Sequence record: MK524178.1
Origin: Escherichia phage PHB12
Reading direction: 5' to 3' (one strand)
Length of the DNA: 64,000 nt
A program made the position numbers and the translations under genes. Shown one piece after another: positions 6,881 to 31,858 of this stretch. Under the pieces are notes generated by a model. The model was given only the letters and a program-made list of their open reading frames with translations. It searched no databases and was not told the DNA's origin. Position 1 is the stretch's first letter. Each line of letters opens with the position of its first letter.

Positions 6881-7876
6881 TCATTCCTTAAGAAGTTTTA
6901 CTACTTGAATAAGATTAGCTCGTTCTGTTTTATTTTTACTGTTTAAGCCTGCTAATCGTGAGATTTCATCATCAGTCTGTTGAATAGTTACATTAAGTTC
7001 GCTAATCAAAGCTTCAAAGTATTTGATTTGCTCAGCATGTTTTGATTCAAATTTCTGAACCGGAATAACGTCCTGGTTTAGTTCATCAATAAGGTCTTTA
7101 AGAGCATCTTCTTGATTGATATCATATTCAACTTCTTTTATTTCTTCAACGAGCTCGTCTTTATATCTAACGTCTTTTAGTCCTGGTGATGGTCCTGAAA
7201 TCTCTTCTTTAAGAGTACAAACATATCCAATACGGTATCCAATGCCGTCTCGCTTGATATCAACTTCGTCAATAAATCCACAATGTTTAAGACCAGAGCC
7301 GATTAGGTCAAAATATCCTTGACGTCGTCCTTCAAACGTTACACGAACTACTAAGACAGTTTTACCTGCAACCTTTTGAAGCTCACATTTATAAAAGTCT
7401 GTTGAACCTGAATAACGTGGATGAGTTTTAAAGTTCATCTGACGATCTAGGCCCATTTGTAAGCGTGCTGATACGGCCATAAAACGTGTTTGGTTCTCGT
7501 TAAGATGAGCAACAATCCATTTCAAAGGCATTTTACACTGTTCACGACCGAACAAATCAGTACGTCCTAGATTACGCAGGATGTTGTTAGAGTTAATCAT
7601 CGACAGAACGTTAAGTTTATTCAGCGCGCTGAAGATTCCATCGGCCATTGATTTTCCGTAACCTTTACACGCTTTAATAAGCGCTCGCGGTAGATTAGTA
7701 TAAATTTCAGACGGCATATGAAAATCAAATTTACTAGTCAGTAATTGATGAACTTGGATAGCAATTTGCTCATAATTAAGTGCTCTGCGATCATTATGGT
7801 CTTTAAACCACACTTTAATCTGTGAAGCACATAAACCGTTAATTTCATGTTTTACCGCATCAGATGTAATGCTCAT
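6881..7876 (-). CDS. hypothetical protein with C-terminal coiled coil, 331 aa
   Basis: ORF track; acidic linker followed by a coiled-coil tail. Confidence 0.6.
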   Translation of the reverse strand: MSITSDAVKHEINGLCASQIKVWFKDHNDRRALNYEQIAIQVHQLLTSKFDFHMPSEIYTNLPRALIKACKGYGKSMADGIFSALNKLNVLSMINSNNILRNLGRTDLFGREQCKMPLKWIVAHLNENQTRFMAVSARLQMGLDRQMNFKTHPRYSGSTDFYKCELQKVAGKTVLVVRVTFEGRRQGYFDLIGSGLKHCGFIDEVDIKRDGIGYRIGYVCTLKEEISGPSPGLKDVRYKDELVEEIKEVEYDINQEDALKDLIDELNQDVIPVQKFESKHAEQIKYFEALISELNVTIQQTDDEISRLAGLNSKNKTERANLIQVVKLLKE

Positions 7877-8876: not shown

Positions 8877-9878
8877 TTATTTCAGAAGTGTAACTTCAGA
8901 GATTTCCTCCCAACCGTCTTTATCAGTTGAAATAAAATCTGCTACATAAAGAGCCGTACGTAATGATACATTGCGAAGACGAGATACGTTAGCCTTCATC
9001 CAGGACAATGCTTTATACGTTTCTGCATCTGTCAGACCACGTTTCTGCATCATGTCAGTAGATAATATTACATCTTCAACTCGAACCATAATCTCTTCAT
9101 TAGAGTGTACTCCAAGGTCGAGATACACTGAACGAGATACTAAAGCTTGAAGGTGCGGGGCAAGCTTCGAACCGCGTTCTAACTCTTTATCGATATCAAC
9201 GTTTGTAATGAAAACGATAGTACCTTCAAACACAAATTCTTTATCAATACCCTTATCATCGAGATAAGACGACGCAGTGCTCCAGCAAACTTTGCGTTTA
9301 TCTCCAGTATCTAATGCTGCTTTAAGAAGGTTCAAGATGTCCATATCCGAGAATACGTCAACGTCGTCGATTAAGAGAACGCTGTCTGCATCACGGTTGA
9401 GCCAAAGTTGTTCGTAAAGGCCTATACCAGAGATTTTACCATTAATGCTTTTGTATTTGATGAAACCGTTATCATTAGCATTATTAAGCGCTTTATCCAG
9501 AGAATACGTCTTACCAATACCTGCTGCACCTGAAATAATGAGTGAACGAATTTTGCCATCGATAATGCCATTCGTCATCATGTTCATTACTTTAAAGCGT
9601 TTGTTGATACGAGTTTTCATATCTTCACTGCTTTCAACAACTGCAACTGGTGATGTCTCAGCTCCTTCCATTACGATGTCTGATTTGAAGACCCATACTC
9701 CACGTTCAGAACCATCAATCATAACGAAAATTTTACCATCACCTAAGTGGGAACATTCAGGATTAAGCTTTGCCGGGAACCATGTCTTTGTGGCAACATA
9801 AGAACCAGAGATTTCGTTATTACGATAGATACCTTTTTTGATTTGAACGTTGAACATTTTATTCTCCAATTTACTCAT
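8877..9878 (-). CDS. P-loop ATPase (AAA+-like core) with a 100-aa N-terminal extension, 333 aa
   Basis: Walker A ISGAAGIGKTYS, Walker B VLLIDDVD, sensor-1-like VFITNVD. Confidence 0.7.
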   Translation of the reverse strand: MSKLENKMFNVQIKKGIYRNNEISGSYVATKTWFPAKLNPECSHLGDGKIFVMIDGSERGVWVFKSDIVMEGAETSPVAVVESSEDMKTRINKRFKVMNMMTNGIIDGKIRSLIISGAAGIGKTYSLDKALNNANDNGFIKYKSINGKISGIGLYEQLWLNRDADSVLLIDDVDVFSDMDILNLLKAALDTGDKRKVCWSTASSYLDDKGIDKEFVFEGTIVFITNVDIDKELERGSKLAPHLQALVSRSVYLDLGVHSNEEIMVRVEDVILSTDMMQKRGLTDAETYKALSWMKANVSRLRNVSLRTALYVADFISTDKDGWEEISEVTLLK

Positions 9879-9926
9879 TTCGTTTCGATAGGTCTATAAT
9901 AACATGTTTAAAGCAAAAGTAAACAA

Positions 9927-10145
9927 TTATTTGCGACGAGATTTTTTGGTAAGAGGTTGAAAGAACACTGCTTTACCTGCAGGAGTCAAAGTAACTCGTA
10001 ATGCATTACCGATTCCCAAGGATGCTTTAACAAGACCTTTAGATTTCAGTTCACCGAATGCTTGACGTTGGTCTGCATCACGAGTGTTAACCATAAGACC
10101 TTTATCACCAGCTTCACGAATCATTTCTAACATTTTGGTTTTCAT
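9927..10145 (-). CDS. small winged-helix-like protein (about 72 aa from the internal ATG)
   Basis: Internal ATG preceded by SD GAGGAG; helix-turn-helix-like MLEMIREAGDKGLMVNTRDADQRQAFGELKSKGLV. Confidence 0.5.
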   Translation of the reverse strand: MKTKMLEMIREAGDKGLMVNTRDADQRQAFGELKSKGLVKASLGIGNALRVTLTPAGKAVFFQPLTKKSRRK

Positions 10146-10230
10146 TTTGTTCTCCTCTTGTTTTGATAGGTCTATAATAACATATCCTAAAAGCATGTAC
10201 ACCACTTTTTAAAAATATTTTGACCCCCTA

Positions 10231-10248
10231 AAGGGCCCGAAGGCCCTT
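10231..10248 (-). terminator. GC-rich hairpin just downstream of the nucleotidyltransferase gene
   Basis: AAGGGCC-cgaa-GGCCCTT perfect 7-bp stem with tetraloop, followed by a U-containing tract on the minus transcript. Confidence 0.5.
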
Positions 10249-10249
10249 A

Positions 10250-11239
10250 TCATTTATAGTACGAATTGTGGTTTTCTAAGTAGACTTGCTCAAGGAAATC
10301 ATCCCAGAAACTCATATCTACTTTTTGTTGCATACCGTTCTTGGCAGCTTGTTCTGATGCTTGTTCAACTTTGTCAACGATATCTTCTAGGAATTCTTGT
10401 ACAGTTTTAAACGTATGTTTACCAAGCTTAACATCTAGAATAAATGGAGCATCCCGAAGTGGGTAAACCAGGTCGCCGGTTTTATAAATTTCTAATAGTT
10501 GAAGTCCACCACGACATGCATGACTCAATGCTTTCCAGTCAATACCTTCGTTAGCTTCTGCCTTACGAGCACGTTCGCCATAGTTCTCTTCCAGTTTAAC
10601 CAGGATGGCATTGAACTCTTTATTGGTTAATGTGTCTTGGAATTTACGGTCTAACAGATTATAGAACGTTTGCTTACCTGTTTTCTCGTTTTCGGTTTCA
10701 ACCCACGAAGCAAATTCACCTACGGGCAGAACATTCTTCATATGTGATAAACGAATTACTGCACCATTATCAAAGTATTGTCCCCATTCGTTAGAACGTT
10801 TAAGGGCTTGTCGAAGAACAGCCAGTCGAGAACCCTTGACACCATATTTAGAAGCTTGCTTACGGACATACCCTAAATAAGATTTCATGTTAGTAGTATA
10901 GAAACGAGACCTGTTGTCTTGAATATACTTCCACACGTCAGGCAAATCAGATTTAACTACTAGACTTTGCGGAGTGTGAAGCATATCTAATGCGACAGTT
11001 TCACCATCCATAGCTAGTTTAAAGAAATATTTGAGACTATACAACTCGTGGTCCACGTCGTCTTTTGTGTTCTTAGAAGATGTGTTATTCGTGTTCTTGC
11101 TCATGTGTTCTTTAACGTTACCAGTCAAGATATCACGAGCATGAGGGACATAAATTTCTTTAAAATCGACGTCAGATTCAGGAGTAGACGTTCCATAAAG
11201 GTGACTACCAAAGTAGCCTTTCATAATTGTTTTCATCAT
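10250..11239 (-). CDS. Pol-beta-superfamily nucleotidyltransferase, 329 aa
   Basis: N-terminal GS-x9-SDVDF motif (YFGSHLYGTSTPESDVDF) typical of minimal nucleotidyltransferases. Confidence 0.65.
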   Translation of the reverse strand: MMKTIMKGYFGSHLYGTSTPESDVDFKEIYVPHARDILTGNVKEHMSKNTNNTSSKNTKDDVDHELYSLKYFFKLAMDGETVALDMLHTPQSLVVKSDLPDVWKYIQDNRSRFYTTNMKSYLGYVRKQASKYGVKGSRLAVLRQALKRSNEWGQYFDNGAVIRLSHMKNVLPVGEFASWVETENEKTGKQTFYNLLDRKFQDTLTNKEFNAILVKLEENYGERARKAEANEGIDWKALSHACRGGLQLLEIYKTGDLVYPLRDAPFILDVKLGKHTFKTVQEFLEDIVDKVEQASEQAAKNGMQQKVDMSFWDDFLEQVYLENHNSYYK

Positions 11240-19484: not shown

Positions 19485-19787
19485 TTATTTACCTTTAATT
19501 ACTTTAGCTGCTTCGATAGCCGCTTGCTGAAGGTCGTCCATAGACATACCGAATTTAGAAGCAAAGTTATCAATTTTCTTTTCGACAGCATTCAAAGGCT
19601 TGGCCTGTTTACCTTCATTAGCGCCAGGAAGAGCGAGAATACGCTCTTTGTCAATATAAAGGCTTACAAGTTTCTTACGGTCTTTATCGGATAAATCATG
19701 AAATGAATGGGCCTTTTTATTTATAGCGGCTTCTAATTTACCTGCACTCACTCGCGCTTCAGTAATAAATTCTTGATATGTTTTCAT
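19485..19787 (-). CDS. internal-protein-like head protein with capsid-targeting leader, 100 aa
   Basis: Begins MKTYQEFITEA, the T4 internal-protein targeting sequence, ending in an LxE-type protease site. Confidence 0.7.
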   Translation of the reverse strand: MKTYQEFITEARVSAGKLEAAINKKAHSFHDLSDKDRKKLVSLYIDKERILALPGANEGKQAKPLNAVEKKIDNFASKFGMSMDDLQQAAIEAAKVIKGK

Positions 19788-19828: not shown

Positions 19829-20407
19829 TTAATTACCACGGGCTGCATTAGCAACGGCATAAGCGTACTGAACATTAGCGTCTTTAAACGTACCTTTAGA
19901 GGTGTCTATTTCTGCCTTAAAGCCGCCTTTAGCCATAACATCGGCAAATTCTTTACGGAAGGCCATTGCATCAAGACCCTTCCATGATGATTTATGCTTG
20001 GCAAATTCAAGACCTGCGAAGTTGACAGCTTTAGCCAATTTATTATCAATGACCCATTTACCGGCTTTAGGCACAAACTTCGGGCCTTTTTGTTTAGAGA
20101 ACAGTTTTAAATTCCAGCGACGAAGATCACTGTCGGCTTTAACAAAAGCTGCGTCTAAGTTACTAGCAACAACATCTTCAATATGAGCAAATTTAAGTCC
20201 GTCAACTTCAATATTTAGATCGTTACGCCAGCGAAGTCCTTCCCAAGCGAAGGCTTTAAAATCAGAAGCTTTTGTGGCTAGATATCGTTCAAGTGGAGCA
20301 GTTTTAGGGTCGAAGCCGTTTCCACCACGATAAGTCCACTCGTCCTTATTAATGCCTTGAGCTTTTCCTGCAAAGGCCTCGGCGATAAATTCTTTATATG
20401 TTTTCAT
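19829..20407 (-). CDS. internal protein (IPIII-like), 192 aa
   Basis: Begins MKTYKEFIAEA; length close to T4 IPIII. Confidence 0.7.
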   Translation of the reverse strand: MKTYKEFIAEAFAGKAQGINKDEWTYRGGNGFDPKTAPLERYLATKASDFKAFAWEGLRWRNDLNIEVDGLKFAHIEDVVASNLDAAFVKADSDLRRWNLKLFSKQKGPKFVPKAGKWVIDNKLAKAVNFAGLEFAKHKSSWKGLDAMAFRKEFADVMAKGGFKAEIDTSKGTFKDANVQYAYAVANAARGN

Positions 20408-20470: not shown

Positions 20471-20731
20471 TTAAGCTTTACCGCCGGAAATAATTCCGAA
20501 GTTGTTAAAATCGTATCCAATATCGTCGACATCTACTTTAGGGCTTGCTACAACATAAGCAATTTCACTACGTTTTGCATAGGTGTTGATTTCTTTACCA
20601 TCGCCACCTAAGAAAGAATACCCATTACGTTTTAATGAGCCAAAGTCTTCCGCATCACCAATGAAAGCTTTAACTTTAAATTTGGGGTCTTTGGCATCTG
20701 CTTCAATGATAAATTCTTGATACATTTTCAT
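20471..20731 (-). CDS. internal-protein-like protein, 86 aa
   Basis: Begins MKMYQEFIIEA. Confidence 0.65.
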   Translation of the reverse strand: MKMYQEFIIEADAKDPKFKVKAFIGDAEDFGSLKRNGYSFLGGDGKEINTYAKRSEIAYVVASPKVDVDDIGYDFNNFGIISGGKA

Positions 20732-21211: not shown

Positions 21212-21493
21212 CTATTTTTCTGAAGCGCCCGAAATATATTTTTCAAGACGTTGTTTCATCAGCGAGCCGTTCTTAGCGATTTCTTCCGGTTTATCGCACA
21301 TACGCAACAAGGCTTCAAGCTTAACGATATCACTGGTACGTTCAAATTTGCGAGTATCTATCTTACTAGCAAGTTCAGAAATACGTGCTAATAGACTTTC
21401 AGCTTCAACCAAAGCTGCACCTAGCTTAGTTGCAAATGTGTCAGTAGCTTCGTTAAGAATAGATTCTGATAAAAATTCACTATATGTTTTCAT
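21212..21493 (-). CDS. internal-protein-like protein (about 93 aa)
   Basis: From the internal ATG begins [11 protein letters not shown]. Confidence 0.6.
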
Positions 21494-22471: not shown

Positions 22472-22712
22472 CTCGGTCCCATGATTTGGCCATTAATTCG
22501 GACATAAATTCTTCAATGCGCGTTTCTTTAGATGGACTTTCACTATTAGAGACCGCAAGTTTGTAATCTGCAATAGGACAGAACATATCAAGGTCCATAT
22601 TAAGGTCGTCTTTGATTTTTTCTTCTGACACATCTTTATCGTATGTGTACAGATAACTATCACATGATTCTGATTTAATGTAAATTGCTATACTCATCTC
22701 AAATTCCTGCAT
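22461..22712 (-). CDS. small acidic protein, 83 aa
   Basis: ORF track. Confidence 0.5.
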   Translation of the reverse strand: MQEFEMSIAIYIKSESCDSYLYTYDKDVSEEKIKDDLNMDLDMFCPIADYKLAVSNSESPSKETRIEEFMSELMAKSWDRDDE

Positions 22713-23173
22713 TCGGTAATAAAACGTTCAACTTCATTATTCTTGGCTTTTATCTTGTCTTTATGTTCTTGTAAACTACTTTTAATAAGATTAATAATGA
22801 TGGCGGCGGTACCGCCGCCAATGATGCCACCAACAACGCTTATGATACTAGATGCTAATAAGATAGCAATAATATCAACAAAACCGAAAGAACTCACCTT
22901 AGTACTGAAAAACCATATAGATGGTACAAATATAATCCATCCTGTTATCCATTGGCACTTATTGAAAAACTTTTCAAGCTCAGCTTGAGTTGTTCGTATT
23001 ACTTCATCGATAGGTTGATATCCATTAATGTATCTGTTCACGATAATACCTGCTGGCTGGTCGATTTTAAATTCTTGGCAAATATGTTTCACTAAGTAGG
23101 ATGGACATCCTGTCCAATCTACTGAATAGTATGAAATACCTTCATTGCCATCGTCTATATTATTGTTAATCAT
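22694..23173 (-). CDS. membrane protein with C-terminal RFITECR tail, 159 aa
   Basis: Two hydrophobic segments; tail shared with four other ORFs in this block. Confidence 0.55.
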   Translation of the reverse strand: MINNNIDDGNEGISYYSVDWTGCPSYLVKHICQEFKIDQPAGIIVNRYINGYQPIDEVIRTTQAELEKFFNKCQWITGWIIFVPSIWFFSTKVSSFGFVDIIAILLASSIISVVGGIIGGGTAAIIINLIKSSLQEHKDKIKAKNNEVERFITECRNLR

Positions 23174-23859
23174 TACCAGCCTTCCATAGGGAATTCCAGA
23201 TAAACTTGAGCATTGACACGAATTTCATTGGTAATCTTTTTAACTCGGTCTGTATTACGAGATACACGTCCGAACCAACGCCATCCATTACTAATTGCAC
23301 GAGAACCAGTGTGCCATGTTTGCCAATCAAACTGAAGAAGAGTACGATCTGGAGCTTCCCATTTCTCTAGTTCACCTTTTTCAATTTTTTCGAGGACTTC
23401 TTTGTGCCACTGACGATAGATAAGTTCGCCATCAGGAATCTGACTGAACTCTGCAGTTCCTGTTGCAAAATGAGTAGGACACACGTCAGCGTTAACAAGA
23501 CCAAGAATATGTTCAGACAAATAGCGAGGATTGTCATAATCAGGTTGTCCTGCAGTAATAAAATGTTGTCCTGTTGGAATATCTGGGCGTGGTACGTCAT
23601 CATGGTGATATCCAGGAATAGCAGGGTACCAACCAGGCATCAGCATGTGGACTCGTGAATCAAATACTACATCCGAGTCTTTCCAATCGTCAGGAAGATT
23701 TTGGATAAAGCTACGAGTAATTGGGCCGCCATTATCAAAAGCAAAATTCAAATCGCAGTTAAAGAACATAGGCTCGTTTTTAATCTGGTCGTTTTTAATC
23801 GCATGAGCAAAACCGCCTACTGCACGAGCTTGACTATTAAACACTTTAGAACTATTCAT
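23173..23859 (-). CDS. hypothetical protein, 228 aa (possible Fe/2OG-oxygenase-like, very tentative)
   Basis: ORF track; His/Asp-rich patch GYHHDDVP; no firm family assignment. Confidence 0.5.
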   Translation of the reverse strand: MNSSKVFNSQARAVGGFAHAIKNDQIKNEPMFFNCDLNFAFDNGGPITRSFIQNLPDDWKDSDVVFDSRVHMLMPGWYPAIPGYHHDDVPRPDIPTGQHFITAGQPDYDNPRYLSEHILGLVNADVCPTHFATGTAEFSQIPDGELIYRQWHKEVLEKIEKGELEKWEAPDRTLLQFDWQTWHTGSRAISNGWRWFGRVSRNTDRVKKITNEIRVNAQVYLEFPMEGW

Positions 23860-23860
23860 A

Positions 23861-24166
23861 TTATTTTCCTCGACATTCTTTAATGAAATTTTCTAGATTG
23901 GTAGATTCAATAGCTTTTTTACGAGCTTCTGCGTGTTCTTCTTCGGACAATTTACATTTATAATTGACCCAGACATTATGGTCGAAACTAGTCGTAGCAT
24001 ATAATAACAATGCTCCAACGAATAGCAAAAACGGCGATAAGAATACAAAACCAGGAACACCATCCATATCGTAAGCCTTTTGTAATACTGCAACAGAAAG
24101 GGCTGCGTAAAAAGGTGATGCAAATATTGTTAAAAGACCAATTCGGTTGGTTTCGCCTAATTTCAT
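23861..24166 (-). CDS. two-TM membrane protein with C-terminal ENFIKECR tail, 101 aa
   Basis: Hydrophobic helices LLTIFASPFYAALSVAVL and FVFLSPFLLFVGALLLY. Confidence 0.55.
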   Translation of the reverse strand: MKLGETNRIGLLTIFASPFYAALSVAVLQKAYDMDGVPGFVFLSPFLLFVGALLLYATTSFDHNVWVNYKCKLSEEEHAEARKKAIESTNLENFIKECRGK

Positions 24167-24185
24167 AATATTCTCCTCATGTTTT

Positions 24186-24226
24186 AATAGGACTACTATA
24201 ACATAGTCCCTATAATTGTGTAAACA
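24186..24226 (-). promoter_or_regulatory. early promoter with palindrome (PeSL-type cassette)
   Basis: Minus-sense GTTTAC; inverted repeat TAGGACTA/TAGTCC over the -10 region. Confidence 0.55.
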
Positions 24227-24237
24227 GTTTTGTGAAG

Positions 24238-25194
24238 TTATTTGAAAGGTTTTACCATATGGAAATTTTGTTTGAAACGTTTGACGTAATCATCATGTCC
24301 TAAGCTTTGGTACATACTTACTACTTTGCTGTAGTTTTCCCAGGCGTATTCACGGAACCAACCGGAGGTGATGCTTGTACAGACTTTTTCCAATGCCATC
24401 ATGAAACTGGCTTCAGGGTTAATTTTAAAGTCATTAGGAATCTGAGAACGTTCTAATGCTAGTACACATGATTCTTCGTATACACCGGCCAACTTGACCA
24501 TTTCTGGTAATGATTCGAACTTCTCGCGTGAGGTCATGACTTCAGAACCATCTTTCATATAAAATGTATACGCTGGACGGTCTGTTAGCGCAATGGCTTC
24601 ATGAATAGTATCATGGTCATATGTATAGATGCCATCTTTAAAGAACGCACTTTTAGAAGTGTCAAGAACTGGGTGAACATAGTTCAAGGTTTCTTTCTGG
24701 CGTTTCAGCATAATTTCAGTAAGTTCATCGTTCAGTGTAACACCTTTACCACGAAGATACTGAATATGGTTCATAGTCTTTAAAAAGAACGGATTATTTT
24801 TCTTGAAACGATGAGACATCTTAATTGCAAGACATATCTCAGGAGTCGCCCAGTAAAACCCGTTCAAACGGTCTTTAGTCAAATTTTTCTTGGCGTATTT
24901 TAAAAGGTCATAAGAAGACGTGAAATCTTCAGGAGTGAGTTCACCGACTAATTCACGGGCATTAGTGATTGCCGGAACAATATATGCTTCAAAATGAGTT
25001 TCGCGTCCATTATGGAAGCATTTGAAAACTTGGACATCAGGGTTATCTTGATGAACATATACACCCATCATTTGATTTTTGAACGCATTCCAAGAACATT
25101 GGTCTGCAATAAAGTCCCAATCACTATTTTTGATAGCGCTAGAATCAATAAGACCGTGATAGTGAAGTGCACGAGAACCAATAACTAACATCAT
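24238..25194 (-). CDS. hypothetical protein, 318 aa (possible nucleotidyltransferase-like N-terminus)
   Basis: N-terminal IGSRAL...SDWDF; spacing is atypical for a Pol-beta motif. Confidence 0.5.
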   Translation of the reverse strand: MMLVIGSRALHYHGLIDSSAIKNSDWDFIADQCSWNAFKNQMMGVYVHQDNPDVQVFKCFHNGRETHFEAYIVPAITNARELVGELTPEDFTSSYDLLKYAKKNLTKDRLNGFYWATPEICLAIKMSHRFKKNNPFFLKTMNHIQYLRGKGVTLNDELTEIMLKRQKETLNYVHPVLDTSKSAFFKDGIYTYDHDTIHEAIALTDRPAYTFYMKDGSEVMTSREKFESLPEMVKLAGVYEESCVLALERSQIPNDFKINPEASFMMALEKVCTSITSGWFREYAWENYSKVVSMYQSLGHDDYVKRFKQNFHMVKPFK

Positions 25195-25222
25195 AATATT
25201 TTCCTCGGATTAATTCATTAAC

Positions 25223-25462
25223 TTAAATTTCACGACATGCGATATCATATTCATCCCAGAGGTCATCGTGTGAAGCCTCTACTAATGGAACGATTGTACC
25301 ATTTATGTCTTCATTATAAGGGCAAATTGTACAGTGCGCATCTTCGAATCGGATGCCTTTGTGTTCAGATTTTTTATAACGCATATCGAATATCTTTGCA
25401 AACTTTTCACGAGTAATGGTTTTAGCAACCACTTTGGTTCCAATACTTTCATAATAAATCAT
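25223..25462 (-). CDS. small Cys/His-containing protein, 79 aa
   Basis: ORF track; HCTICPY motif. Confidence 0.5.
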   Translation of the reverse strand: MIYYESIGTKVVAKTITREKFAKIFDMRYKKSEHKGIRFEDAHCTICPYNEDINGTIVPLVEASHDDLWDEYDIACREI

Positions 25463-25480
25463 TGTGGACTCCGTTTAATT

Positions 25481-25521
25481 TGATAGGACTACTATAACAT
25501 AGCCCTATCTTGTTGTAAACT
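25481..25521 (-). promoter_or_regulatory. early promoter with palindrome (PeSL-type cassette)
   Basis: Minus-sense GTTTAC plus near-copy of the TAGGACTACTATAACATAG element. Confidence 0.55.
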
Positions 25522-25524
25522 GTT

Positions 25525-25722
25525 TTAGCAAGAATAACTAGATGATACCCAGCCTTGAACAGTGATACTATTGTGGGATAATGAGATCGCGTCCTGGAGA
25601 TTCAGACCTGCGTTATCTTCAATCCATAACGTAACTTCTTCGCTTTCTTCTGTTGCAATTTGGAACAGGTTTTCCAGAGCAGCTACTGCCGTACGTACAG
25701 CACAATCTAATTCACGAGACAT
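25525..25722 (-). CDS. Cys-tail family member (ends WVSSSYSC), 65 aa
   Basis: C-terminal G-W-V-S-S-S-x-x-C shared with two adjacent paralogs. Confidence 0.6.
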   Translation of the reverse strand: MSRELDCAVRTAVAALENLFQIATEESEEVTLWIEDNAGLNLQDAISLSHNSITVQGWVSSSYSC

Positions 25723-25731
25723 ATGGTTTCC

Positions 25732-26004
25732 TTAGCAAGTGTGAGAAGATGCGATCCAACCACCAGTTTCGAGGCTTAGGTTGTAGTCGTATTGGTAAAC
25801 GTCGGCCCATTCAGCATAGCCGTTTTTTGTACAACGTTCAAGGTCGGCTTTAAGCTGTCCGGGTGAATGATATGTTCCACCCATACCATAAGCTGGATAC
25901 AAGTCGAATGTTGTGTTTTGTTTATCAGCAATTTCTTTGGCAGCCTCAATAGCTGCATAGATTTTTGCTACAGCTTCAGCCAGTTCGGTTTGTTCTTTAG
26001 ACAT
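25732..26004 (-). CDS. Cys-tail family member (ends WIASSHTC), 90 aa
   Basis: Same C-terminal motif; the stop codon is followed directly by the SD of the next gene. Confidence 0.6.
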   Translation of the reverse strand: MSKEQTELAEAVAKIYAAIEAAKEIADKQNTTFDLYPAYGMGGTYHSPGQLKADLERCTKNGYAEWADVYQYDYNLSLETGGWIASSHTC

Positions 26005-26013
26005 AATGATTCC

Positions 26014-26319
26014 TTAGCACAACGCAGAAGACGAAACCCAAGCACCTTCAGTAATAACGTAACCATTACCTTCACGCTTAACATCGCCACCATTATTTTC
26101 AATTTCATCTTTCATCCACTGGGATACGATTTCACCCTTAGGATAATAAGTACGACCGCTACCATAATCACCTACAGAAAATGATACGGCATATTGGTCT
26201 GCGATCTTTGTTGCTTCTTCTTCGATACGTTCAGCTTGGTTCAGAAGTTTATAAATTGCATCTGAAGCGGATTTGGCATCATTAAACTCTGGTACTTTAA
26301 TTTCAATAATCTTACTCAT
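26014..26319 (-). CDS. Cys-tail family member (ends WVSSSALC), 101 aa
   Basis: Same C-terminal motif; N-terminal amphipathic helix. Confidence 0.6.
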   Translation of the reverse strand: MSKIIEIKVPEFNDAKSASDAIYKLLNQAERIEEEATKIADQYAVSFSVGDYGSGRTYYPKGEIVSQWMKDEIENNGGDVKREGNGYVITEGAWVSSSALC

Positions 26320-26675
26320 TTTCTACATTCCTTAATAAAGTTTTCTATTGTTTCATTTTCACGTCTAGCTAGGAGTTCATTATAACTAATCATTTGAGAA
26401 GCGTAAACTTTTTTATTTTTCTTGTTATGGTTTATAAAATCGTAGTAAAAATAGACTACAGTACAAAAGGATGCGATGGATGCAAAGGCTTGGGTATACC
26501 GTAAGTCCTGCCATTGGTCTGTGAATCCACCAGAGTTCCCTATAAATCCTAACACAACGCCGTCAATAAGAAATCCAACTAATCCAAAGGCAAATCCCAT
26601 GCCAATACTCATAATAAAAATTAGAATGTTCTCACCAAGAGAAGGCCATACGGTTAAGAGTTGAGGCTTTTGCAT
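26316..26675 (-). CDS. membrane protein with C-terminal ENFIKECR tail, 119 aa
   Basis: Hydrophobic segments ILIFIMSIGMGFAFGLVGFLIDGVVLGFI and FASIASFCTVVYFYY. Confidence 0.55.
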   Translation of the reverse strand: MQKPQLLTVWPSLGENILIFIMSIGMGFAFGLVGFLIDGVVLGFIGNSGGFTDQWQDLRYTQAFASIASFCTVVYFYYDFINHNKKNKKVYASQMISYNELLARRENETIENFIKECRK

Positions 26676-27079
26676 CTTATTTCCTTAACGAATTCCATAG
26701 CTTCTTCATATTCATACTTTTTAACAGCTTCATCATACTGAGCTTGGGCTTTTGCGCACTGAACTTTCCACTCACGAACTCGAGCTCTGTGATGACGGCC
26801 TTGGTGCCAATATCCTACCCAGTTAATAGGCATTAATAAAAATGGTACAATAAGTGGTGCGACGAACATTAATGAAAATGCTGCATCAGACGATATAACT
26901 TCACTAGAATCTAAAACAGCTCCTATAATCATAAAGATTAAAAATGCTAAAGCTAAAATAGGGCCAAATAGTACTTCGTTTGGGATTAATTTACGTTTGT
27001 ATTCATACGCCCAAGGCTTAATTGGCATGTATAGGGTTGGCTTTGACATATTCTCTACATTCCATAATAAATTGCTCAA
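26654..27079 (-). CDS. membrane protein with C-terminal EFVKEIR tail, 141 aa
   Basis: Two TM segments; likely start at the internal ATG (MSKPTLY). Confidence 0.55.
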   Translation of the reverse strand: MSNLLWNVENMSKPTLYMPIKPWAYEYKRKLIPNEVLFGPILALAFLIFMIIGAVLDSSEVISSDAAFSLMFVAPLIVPFLLMPINWVGYWHQGRHHRARVREWKVQCAKAQAQYDEAVKKYEYEEAMEFVKEIRCKSLNS

Positions 27080-27635
27080 GGATTAAATTGTTAGTGAAAT
27101 TAGGACTAACAACCATAGTTTCATAAAGCGCATCAATAGCACTTAAAGCATCAACTCTTTTAAGCAAAGGCTTGCCTTCATACATAGTTTCAGAATCGAC
27201 GATTAACGTAAAGTAGTATTTTTTATTATCGACTAGAACTTCTGTATCGATATAAAACATATTAGACCTCAGAAGCTTATCTCTAAAACCATAATAATCT
27301 TCAGAGCGTTCGCTGATATATTCCAATTCAGTGTTTAAACAACAAACAGACCACGTAGGAGCAACGAAATCAGTGAATCTAATATCATGGTCTGCAACTA
27401 GTTTAGCAATAGCTCCGATATCATTAATCATGATACCTGGGGCTAATAAAGATTTTCGGTTATTTGCATATTCAGTTGTCTCATAAGAAGCTGACCAGTA
27501 CCATTTACGTCCGGTTGCAACATATCGTAATGAATCGACTAAAGACGTAGGTGGATTTACCTTATCTCGGAACTCTTCGAACATTGAGTCAATATCATTA
27601 TTTTGGTTTCGCATGTTAACTCCTTTATTATCCAA
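27018..27635 (-). CDS. soluble protein carrying an EQFIMECR motif near its C-terminus, 205 aa
   Basis: ORF track; probable start at the internal ATG (MRNQNN). Confidence 0.5.
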   Translation of the reverse strand: MDNKGVNMRNQNNDIDSMFEEFRDKVNPPTSLVDSLRYVATGRKWYWSASYETTEYANNRKSLLAPGIMINDIGAIAKLVADHDIRFTDFVAPTWSVCCLNTELEYISERSEDYYGFRDKLLRSNMFYIDTEVLVDNKKYYFTLIVDSETMYEGKPLLKRVDALSAIDALYETMVVSPNFTNNLILEQFIMECREYVKANPIHAN

Positions 27636-27663: not shown

Positions 27664-28272
27664 TTATTTCAAAGAGTTAATATATTCTTGTACATCAGCA
27701 GAAGTGGTTTCGACACCGGCTGGAGTGCCGTTGAACGTTTCAACACGAGTCAGAGTGTCTTCGATATCAACCTTAGTCAGTGCAGCAATTTCAATCACAT
27801 CATCAGCCGTAGAGATACCAAGAGCATTGGCTGCTCGAGTTTCACGAATGTATTCGAGTTTGATTGCCAGATTCTGACGAGCGTCATCAAGTTCAACCAC
27901 CTTACGAGCAATTTCAATTCGCATAGCGGCGTACCCGTCAGCTTTTGTATTAAGTTGTTCGGCAGTTCGACGATACAGAAGACCAAGCTTAGCATGCATG
28001 GTAACATCTTGTCCTTCAGCCAAGAGCTTACGAATTTCACGTTCCTTAGAAGCGGCTTGCTTGTTCTTTTCATTAACAAGTTCGCGAATACGTTTTTCTT
28101 CATTAATAGATTTAATAGAAGCCGTTTTTAGTTCTTTGATTTGGGTAATCAACTTATCTGCAGCTGCGTTATACTGTTCTTCGACAGTCAGATTTTTAGC
28201 CATAGCAGTACCCAGTTTAGTGCGGATGAATTCAACAAGTTTCTTCAGTGTGTTCATATTATTACCTTTCAA
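27664..28272 (-). CDS. coiled-coil protein, possibly PspA/IM30-like, 202 aa
   Basis: Heptad-rich and charged throughout, with the length and composition of PspA-family proteins; no motif-level proof. Confidence 0.45.
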
Positions 28273-31221: not shown

Positions 31222-31485
31222 TTATTTCAAATATATTGCGTATTTTTTATAGCCACCAGGCTCGTGTCGAAGACCTTTATCATTCGCAAAACGTTGAATG
31301 TTATTGAACTGGTTTTCATCAAGTTCGGATGTGTCAAATACGAAAAAGTTTCGTTTGTTACCAAGCGTGATATGCGGAGTTAAGTCAATGTTATACAAAT
31401 TAAGAATATCAGCAATAACCTGATTAACCGCTTTGTTAATTTTCACACCAGATGATTCTGAGATGAATTCGTTGAAAGTTTTCAT
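31222..31485 (-). CDS. internal-protein-like protein (about 87 aa)
   Basis: From the internal ATG begins MKTFNEFISES. Confidence 0.6.
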   Translation of the reverse strand: MKTFNEFISESSGVKINKAVNQVIADILNLYNIDLTPHITLGNKRNFFVFDTSELDENQFNNIQRFANDKGLRHEPGGYKKYAIYLK

Positions 31486-31547: not shown

Positions 31548-31858
31548 TATTTTATGCCTTTAGAAGAAATGGTATTTTGGCGTTTGACCCCTGTTTGTGA
31601 AAAATCGTGGTTATCGATTTGGTCAACTCGCATAACACCAAATGCGGATTTAATTTTGGCTTTTGAACCTTTTTTGATACTAATTACCATATAAGTATCA
31701 TTTTTCTTATATTCGAAATTTGTTACTTCAACGCCTTGATTAGAAATTGACTTAATAATAGCATTAGCGTATTCATCATCTAACGGACCGTTAGTGTTAA
31801 TAATAAAATTTTTATCCGCTTTAGTAGCTTCCGCGATGAATTCTTGATAGGTTTTCAT
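31547..31858 (-). CDS. internal protein (IPI position), 103 aa
   Basis: Begins MKTYQEFIAEA; lies immediately before 57B as ipI does in T4. Confidence 0.65.
   Translation of the reverse strand: MKTYQEFIAEATKADKNFIINTNGPLDDEYANAIIKSISNQGVEVTNFEYKKNDTYMVISIKKGSKAKIKSAFGVMRVDQIDNHDFSQTGVKRQNTISSKGIK

Follow-up and report, generated by a model that had tools for sequence, protein, structure and literature searches.

A shared C-terminal tail on clustered proteins of T4-like phages, probably conserved as peptide and possibly a docking motif

Why should five genes that stand in one run of a phage genome, and whose products look otherwise unrelated, end in nearly the same few residues? The question is raised by Escherichia phage PHB12 (sequence record MK524178.1), of which a stretch of 64,000 nucleotides, here called the window, was analyzed. 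A first-pass annotation of this DNA had pointed out a C-terminal tail of the form E-x-F-[IV]-x-E-C-R on five open reading frames (ORFs), four of them coding for membrane proteins, and had ascribed it to selection on the peptide. The window is 96-97% identical to RB69-type phages (genus Mosigvirus, T4 family), and the five ORFs, all of which were recovered on the minus strand with the C-termini described, are homologues of T4/RB69 e.5, e.4, e.3, RB69ORF133c, and e.2 according to the RB69 annotation. The run from e.5 to e.2 is flanked by e.6 on one side and by nudE and e (lysozyme) on the other. In all likelihood, judging from the aligned sequences, purifying selection on the amino acids, rather than on the nucleotides of the gene junctions, holds the tail in place. 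The best overall reading of its role, to which we assign a probability of roughly 0.5, is a portable cytoplasmic docking motif, possibly for the e.6 product.

The five carriers and their tails are the following.

e.5 homologue, 27018-27614, minus strand: 198 residues, soluble, ending in ...LILEQFIMECREYVKANPIHAN and stop; phrog_2607, PF26876.
Tail motif of e.5 (EQFIMECR), 27054-27077, minus strand: located by the six-frame motif scan.
e.4 homologue, 26654-27049, minus strand: 131 residues, two transmembrane (TM) segments, cytoplasmic C-terminus with a degenerate tail, ...AMEFVKEIRCKSLNS and stop; phrog_2604.
Degenerate tail of e.4 (EFVKEIR), 26675-26695, minus strand: Cys replaced by I; the e.3 ATG lies inside the codons that follow.
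e.3 homologue, 26316-26675, minus strand: membrane protein of 119 residues with a K-rich cytoplasmic C-terminus, ending in ...ETIENFIKECRK and stop; phrog_2330.
Tail motif of e.3 (ENFIKECR), 26322-26345, minus strand: the next gene has AAGGAA (K-E) as its Shine-Dalgarno (SD) sequence and starts at an ATG that overlaps the stop (ATGA).
RB69ORF133c homologue (ORF133c below), 23861-24166, minus strand: 101 residues, two TM segments, ending in ...NLENFIKECRGK and stop; phrog_9798.
Tail motif of ORF133c (ENFIKECR), 23870-23893, minus strand: written TTC ATT AAA GAA TGT CGA; the next gene has CGAGGA (R-G) as its SD.
e.2 homologue, 22694-23173, minus strand: 159 residues with a soluble N-terminal domain, two TM segments, and a cytoplasmic tail, ...EVERFITECRNLR and stop; phrog_2203, PF26896 Phage_T4_Y06M.
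Tail motif of e.2 (ERFITECR), 22706-22729, minus strand: located by the six-frame motif scan and in the e.2 alignment.

The upstream TTG codons at which the first-pass annotation had begun e.5 and e.4 were replaced, the likely starts being ATG 27614 and ATG 27049, respectively. The e.4 product then begins MSKPTLY..., as annotated in T4 (MSKPSLY...), whereas the RB69 record begins at the second ATG (MPIKPW...; window 27028-27049). The upstream ATG is favored because MSKP[ST]LY is conserved between T4 and RB69, and it results in an overlap of the last 32 nucleotides (nt) of e.5 with the start of e.4. Hydropathy, charge, and the positive-inside rule give e.4, ORF133c, and e.2 two TM segments and a C-terminal stretch of 40-56 residues that is basic and cytoplasmic, with both termini inside. 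The same layout is seen in e.3, where two hydrophobic segments were recognized by eye, and e.5 is soluble by hydropathy, so that four of the five carriers are membrane proteins, as had been stated. Each of the five ORFs forms a separate PHROG, all labelled "unknown function", and a Pfam search with the five proteins and their neighbours returned no informative match; precomputed labels supply the newer families PF26896 Phage_T4_Y06M and PF26876 Phage_T4_Y06P.

The tail is rare outside this run. In the six-frame translation of the window, the strict form E.F[IV].ECR occurs exactly four times, always at the ends of these ORFs and 1-11 residues ahead of the stop of a long reading frame; 0.0018 copies would be expected from residue frequencies, and 0 of 200 shuffles contained any match. 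No copy of F[IV].[ED]C[RK] or of looser forms was found in positions 1-50,000 or 107,000-156,999 of RB69, so in an RB69-type genome the motif is limited to this cluster across about 157 of 167.5 kb.

To define what is conserved, the region was compared among T4 and T4-like phages, other Mosigvirus, Gaprivervirus, Dhakavirus, Kanagawavirus (PEi26 and ZX14), a Klebsiella phage, Yersinia phage fHe-Yen9-01, a Serratia Winklervirus-type phage, Aeromonas phage avDM5 (Biquartavirus), and Cronobacter phage Banach (Pseudotevenvirus). The core that emerges is hydrophobic(-3)-x-x-[FW](0)-[IV](+1)-x-x-C(+4)-[RK](+5). The shared tail is real, but the pattern first proposed for it was too strict, as both glutamates fall outside the core and are dispensable (variants FIKGCRK, FIKDCRK, WIEGCRK, FIQMCRR, FVEQCRT, FVDYCRR, and FIKHCRE). 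The spacing of the core sets L, F, I, and C on a single helix face, and the AlphaFold2 (AF2) model of e.5 places the tail within helix 177-192. We regard the tail as a genuine portable protein module, forming the end of a cytoplasmic alpha-helix.

The codons separate conservation of the peptide from conservation of the DNA. Among 54 candidate tails from 13 loci, a few of which are chance matches and not tails, Cys is written TGT 22 times and TGC 17 times, Phe TTT 33 times and TTC 13 times, and Arg AGA 21, CGT 9, CGA 5, AGG 5, CGC 5, and CGG 1 times, and synonymous turnover is free at F, [IV], C, and R. The codon differences between copies that had been listed for the window (TTT/TTC, TGT/TGC, and AGA/CGA/AGG) were correct. 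Over 21 representative tails, the five conserved codons show identities of 0.77, 0.91, and 0.56 at codon positions 1, 2, and 3, Leu(-3) is encoded by CTT, CTA, or TTA, and position +2 holds seven different residues. Codon pairs that differ do so synonymously in 326 cases and non-synonymously in 211 at the conserved codons, versus 58 and 663 at the variable ones. The same is seen along single genes: the e.5 tail ECREYVKA is identical in T4 and becomes FI[TAK]ECREYAK in Gaprivervirus and Dhakavirus, with TGT/TGC and CGT/CGC codons, and among 12 e.2 homologues with identities of 17-31%, the only invariant columns are G12, I152, C155, and R156, the last three lying in the tail.

Furthermore, the pattern that would speak for the nucleotides, namely, junction sequences kept above a different upstream frame, was sought and not found. 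The loci hold 58 matches to the junction DNA at up to 4 mismatches, comprising 41 in-frame tails, 2 in-frame remnants of e.3, about 11 in-frame copies of an internal e.2 motif, and 4 attributable to noise; none of the 58 is an out-of-frame copy of the junction. The next start codon follows the F codon at anywhere from 17 to over 40 nt, and in Gaprivervirus the e.4 start has shifted 18 nt farther off with FITECREYAK retained. With codon turnover in these tails, a frame that is always kept, and a variable distance to the next start, the earlier proposal of selection at the peptide level held up well.

Exchange between copies within a genome had been suspected from the V-rich tails of T4 and the CGT-rich tails of Gaprivervirus. 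The pairwise test of such concerted evolution gave no excess: tail similarity is 0.72 within a genome, 0.73 between orthologues, and 0.70 between unrelated pairs of family and genus, so gene conversion is not the source of the similarity.

About nine unrelated bodies carry the tail, and the T4-like phages that have it belong to at least ten genera. The tail is present in all orthologues of e.5, e.3, and e.2 in the compared phages and degenerate in e.4. The carriers comprise e.5-like soluble proteins of 93-316 residues, the membrane proteins e.2, e.3, e.4, and ORF133c/orf186, and a second soluble family (PEi26 orf139, positions 9666-9950 of the Klebsiella phage locus L028, and ZX14). With the tail included, hhalign comparisons reached probabilities of 58-90% over 10-63 columns (e.2-e.3, 90%; e.3-e.4, 89%; e.3-ORF133c, 85%; e.2-e.5, 58% over 10 columns), the similarity being confined to the last 10-40 residues. 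With the tail removed, hhalign found every pair at 24% or less, the top one being e.3-e.4 at the N-terminus and the rest falling below 8%. The four membrane proteins nevertheless have in common their topology and a C-terminal helix of roughly 35 residues, and e.4 and e.3 both begin M-x-K-P; for these reasons, e.4, e.3, ORF133c, and e.2 are probably old paralogues that arose in tandem. A weak match (E of 0.002) also links ORF133c to the e.2 family phrog_2203, in its C-terminal half. The statement that the bodies are otherwise unrelated is accurate for what remains once the tail is removed, but has to be qualified for these four; in the soluble carriers, the tail is the only part in common.

A search of 5.8 billion proteins with a tail-only profile retrieved short fragments of the same families and no new carriers. 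The e.5 family is narrow in homologue searches, with T4 and RB69 types only, and the contigs of distant metagenomic e.2 representatives break just upstream of e.2 and offer little context. Additional carriers may be represented by ORFs with tail-like ends in loci L005 (6776-7105), L018 (Dhakavirus, near 7868), and L028 (Klebsiella phage, 10127-10486), which read ...KLFLEYCRSDVQL and stop or ...MFLALCRKRVYN...; the one in L005 and its neighbours bear the labels capsid, scaffold, or tail protein, in what looks like an annotation error. In T4 strain 147 (L002, 5360-5668 and 5656-5847), e.2 is split, so that the annotated 102-residue product lacks the tail and an unannotated overlapping ORF ends ...LNNFITECRKLK; other T4-like genomes have one intact e.2 of 162 residues.

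What would a motif of this kind do at the cytoplasmic end of small membrane proteins? We propose that the tail may be a common docking element, bringing its carriers to one shared cytoplasmic partner at the inner membrane. That the tails share a docking function is, by analogy with known systems, a proposition to which we give slightly less than even odds. C-terminal docking peptides common to unrelated proteins are well known, among them the gp45 clamp-binding tails of T4 gp43, gp55, and gp33 and the MIM motifs of ESCRT-III proteins that bind MIT domains. The tail resembles them in being one short C-terminal motif on otherwise unrelated proteins with conservation at the protein level, and such motifs let several clients use one partner. 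It differs from them in its sequence, [FW]-[IV]-x-x-C-R, and in that its carriers are clustered in one gene run and are mostly membrane proteins.

The likeliest partner would be the product of the neighbouring gene.

e.6 homologue, 27664-28257, minus strand: 197 residues; context gene and candidate partner.

In the loci examined, tails are confined to the run of genes beginning immediately downstream of e.6. The first ORF of this run bears the tail in 25 of 26 loci, and in the 26th it is a frameshifted e.5 that still has the tail. The pairing of e.6 with a tail gene persists in avDM5 (e.6 identity, 52%) and Banach (35%), there next to nrdD and not near nudE. Homologues of e.6 occur in 1103 phage records. 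The AF2 model of e.6, with a predicted local distance difference test score (pLDDT) of 75, suggests an N-terminal helix followed by a long helical hairpin (25-80/86-145). Its top eight Foldseek matches in the PDB are Vipp1 (best E, 7e-4), followed by PspA, CdvB, and CdvB2. Profile matches of e.6 to Vipp1 are colinear and weak (E of 1-2 only, PDB profiles), and neither e.6 nor 22 homologues matched PspA_IM30 (PF04012) even at E up to 10.

PspA-type genes typically neighbour genes for small membrane partners, and in PspA of E. coli (with PspB/PspC) and LiaH of Bacillus (with LiaI), a hairpin protein that forms polymers is encoded beside small proteins of the inner membrane that are believed to recruit it through their cytoplasmic ends. 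It is because of this typical arrangement that we infer a shared docking tail with e.6 as the partner. The phage locus is similar: beyond e.6, with its predicted hairpin and with Vipp1 and PspA as its best Foldseek matches, come the genes for small inner-membrane proteins that have two TM segments and a cytoplasmic tail (e.4, e.3, ORF133c, and e.2), and their synteny with e.6 is kept in 26 of 26 loci. The membrane carriers could then act as anchors or clients of an e.6 product of PspA/Vipp1 (ESCRT-III)-like shape, in the way that PspB/PspC serve PspA and LiaI serves LiaH. That e.6 is the partner is, by this analogy, a tentative assignment that we hold as unlikely in itself, about one chance in a few. 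Still more speculative, and rather doubtful at present, is that T4-like phages encode their own ESCRT-III/PspA-like system of membrane remodelling or repair. In such a system, e.6 would be the polymer, the tail an address label that lets an interchangeable group of small inner-membrane proteins and soluble e.5-like adaptors recruit or regulate e.6, and the coding sequence of the label a recombination joint for swapping clients.

Several observations weigh against docking, or against e.6 as its target. The Cys of the core has been lost in e.4 (I in the window, S in T4, and V in Gaprivervirus) and in one Serratia-phage paralogue, the replacements being I, S, V, or M, so Cys is not required of every carrier. 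The AF2 model of e.5 is poor (pLDDT of 63) and has no Foldseek neighbour in the PDB at E below 0.1; because of this, whether the e.5 tail is free or packed is not readable from the model. In related phages, synteny of e.6 with tail genes does not amount to independent evidence that their products interact, and K at +2 and E or G at +3 are partly due to an SD embedded in the tail and not to the protein.

Among the alternatives, the one that survives best, although we consider it improbable, is that the tails are inert relics of common ancestry, the junction having spread through gene fusions and the tandem duplication of one ancestral gene for a small membrane protein, and the copies being kept alike by recombination with one another and not by selection for any function of the tail. 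The shared N-terminus (M-[SQ]-K-P-x-L), topology, and tail of e.4 and e.3 fit this origin, as do the e.5/e.4 and e.4/e.3 junctions, which are homologous DNA with a 5-nt indel, and a chimeric e.3/e.4 protein annotated in phage OLB35 (P0016). Recombination at tails and junctions occurs naturally, as three independent indel events with breakpoints there demonstrate. In the T4-like locus L012, e.2 is gone and the e.3 tail is fused to the sequence usually found 3' of the e.2 tail. In Dhakavirus, e.4 is gone and the e.5/e.4 junction is joined to the e.4/e.3 junction, giving a hybrid e.5 end (...EVQNGTA). In Kanagawavirus ZX14, an extra tail-bearing membrane gene, orf186, stands between the e.2 tail and nudE, whereas its relative L022 has no orf186 and its e.2 bears the orf186-type tail end. 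Comparison of these sequences shows the repeated junction DNA serving as short homology for the precise deletion or insertion of whole genes. In the Mosigvirus phages LF82-3 (L003, 4991-5090) and phiE142 (L010), e.3 is cut to its last 30 codons, with the body deleted and the tail intact.

Fusion may also have left a trace in e.2, whose homologues contain an internal in-frame motif, L-I-x-E-[FY]-[KR], usually followed by Met (L002, 5462; L004, 9394; and others), present in the window as ICQEFK at residues 31-36 (23066-23083). From its sequence, this motif resembles a tail plus start codon and may be a fossil left when two genes fused long ago. ZX14 has the membrane half of RB69-type e.2 as a gene of its own, orf186, and DKIKAK is found in both. 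A shared origin, however, accounts for where the tails came from and not for their maintenance. The bodies have diverged past detection, yet I, C, and R of the tail are invariant over 17-31% identity; the same consensus is found in ten genera with synonymous sites saturated, and tails within a genome show no excess identity.

In behaviour, and in behaviour only, the tails resemble the PeSL (early promoter and stem-loop) cassettes of T4-type phages, short repeats at gene boundaries in hyperplastic regions that are points of homologous exchange (Arbiol et al. 2010, PMC2839356; Comeau et al. 2014, PMC4122927). Both act in the precise gain and loss of genes, the tails as indel breakpoints. PeSLs consist of an intergenic early promoter (-35/-10) and a stem-loop or terminator (PMC4122927); the tails, unlike them, are coding, are conserved as peptide, and lack the GTTTACA...TATAGT promoter and the hairpin. 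Two nearly identical PeSL-like elements, gtttaca...tatgttatagtagtcctat, lie in the window at 25483-25520 and 24187-24225 (minus strand), upstream of the ORF135c-like gene and of ORF133c.

A less probable explanation than inert ancestry is that the peptide is functionless and its similarity a by-product of a conserved RNA or DNA cassette at the gene junctions, made of an AU-rich stretch, SD, spacer, and ATGA coupling. Such a cassette would account for the position of each tail within about 17-40 nt of the next start codon and for a class of DNA-alike junctions that recurs across genes and genera (TTYATTAARGRNTGYAGAAAATGA), in which F and ATG are 20 nt apart in about 15 cases and +3 varies (E, G, or D) with the purine run AAGGA/AAAGG kept. 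It would also account for the 24 nt GAATGTAGAGAATATGTCAAAGCC of e.5, identical in T4 and RB69, which overlap the e.4 start. However, the SD core is the least conserved part, as T, A, M, I, or S at +2 breaks AAGGA in many tails in which F, I, C, and R stay. Arg is drawn from both the AGR and CGN families, Cys from both of its codons, and Leu(-3) from both families. Third positions are not conserved, the distance and register to the start are not fixed, and each of the 41 good DNA matches sits in frame at the end of an ORF, with no frame-independent copies. In the e.5-like genes of PEi26, avDM5, and Banach, the motif lies 20-75 nt from any downstream start. As the whole explanation, a pure RNA junction cassette is largely excluded.

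It is important to consider that the junction still leaves its mark on the tail. Positions +2/+3 are biased to K-E, K-G, K-D, and E-E where the next gene starts 20 nt past the F codon, the SD in these cases being AAGGAA, AAAGGA, or GAGGAA; in other tails it is AGGAAA (R-K) or CGAGGA (R-G), and the codons following R are biased toward AGG-AAA and CGA-GGA. The placement of the SD thus differs between tails, being formed by K-E, E-E, K-G, R-K, or R-G. Since the tail codons also supply the SD of the next gene and the conserved residues are not the SD-forming ones, the tail is under a double constraint. The caveat attached to the original observation, that overlap with the ribosome-binding region could explain part of the conservation, therefore holds for +2/+3 and the residues after R but not for the core. 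Most tails precede an overlapping or close start and contribute part of the SD, as in ATGA-coupled junctions with the SD in the upstream coding sequence; they differ from those in that their conserved residues do not form the SD and in that spacing and SD position vary.

About as improbable as the cassette is a C-terminal stability or quality-control signal, that is, a degron or protection tag read by FtsH, ClpXP, or Tsp, that would time the removal of early proteins. The motif is short and, by hydropathy, lies near the C-terminus of the cytoplasmic tails of small membrane proteins, where stability signals are usually located. Its distance from the true C-terminus varies from 0 to 25 residues, unlike that of end-anchored degrons, and no likeness to known tags was seen.

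The weakest alternative, a capsid-targeting sequence (CTS) or prohead-protease site akin to the CTS at the N-terminus of T4 internal proteins (MKTYQEFIAE|A, in which gp21 cuts after [LI]-x-E), was rejected as a main explanation and is very improbable: the window does hold six CTS-bearing internal-protein genes, and TYQEFITEAR of an IPII-like gene is the best non-tail match to the position-specific scoring matrix of the tail over about 164 kb in six frames (FITEAR versus FITECR), but its score of 11.8 bits equals noise in non-coding frames, which reaches 11.5, many tails have G, Q, M, Y, H, N, or D in place of the Glu at +3 required by gp21, the tails are C-terminal where the six true CTSs are N-terminal, and most carriers are membrane proteins encoded on the early-gene strand. 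Common to the two are the core F-[IL]-x-E, a hydrophobic position -3, and a small residue following E; the CTS is N-terminal and cleaved after Glu, whereas in the C-terminal tail Glu is dispensable, and Cys-Arg is missing from most CTSs. The six genes that start with a CTS (MKTYQEFIAEA and variants) lie on the minus strand, with the sequence at 31835-31858, 31462-31485, 21470-21493, 20708-20731, 20384-20407, and 19764-19787, and this set flanking the tail cluster is unusually large.

In the part of the literature that was covered, on e.2-e.6, Y06M-Y06Q, phage PspA, and genome-wide T4 screens, we found no description of the shared tail or of a function for e.2-e.6. The sequence of the tail, its carriers, and its double role as ribosome-binding site and recombination joint appear to be new, whereas shared C-terminal docking peptides are of an already known kind. 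The genes e.2-e.6 are conserved genes of the best-studied phage, and a tail acting at the protein level would provide a common handle on e.2-e.5, in which one peptide bait or one four-residue mutation would serve for many proteins. The possible PspA/ESCRT-III-like neighbour points to the integrity or remodelling of the inner membrane during infection. Independently of function, the locus is a clear natural case of double constraint, combining a peptide motif with the ribosome-binding site of the following gene, and the tail as a recombination joint extends the idea of modular shuffling by PeSLs to coding junctions.

Other genes are situated among those with the tail. An ORF134c-like gene (24238-25194, minus strand; DUF7277 and DUF7275) and an ORF132c-like gene (23173-23859, minus strand; 228 residues) are syntenic throughout the Tevenvirinae loci examined; conservation of the latter from RB69 to PEi26 is very high. 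Within the same span, three tandem small ORFs (26014-26319, 25732-26004, and 25525-25722, minus strand) make up a second tail family with the pattern W-[VI]-[SA]-S-S-x-x-C before the stop (GAWVSSSALC, GGWIASSHTC, and QGWVSSSYSC). By analogy, its Ser-rich end and terminal Cys recall peptide precursors. Genes of this second family stand four to six in a row in PEi26, the Klebsiella phage, and fHe-Yen9-01 (...WVSSSMEC, ...WQPSSC, and ...WYSSSMQSC).

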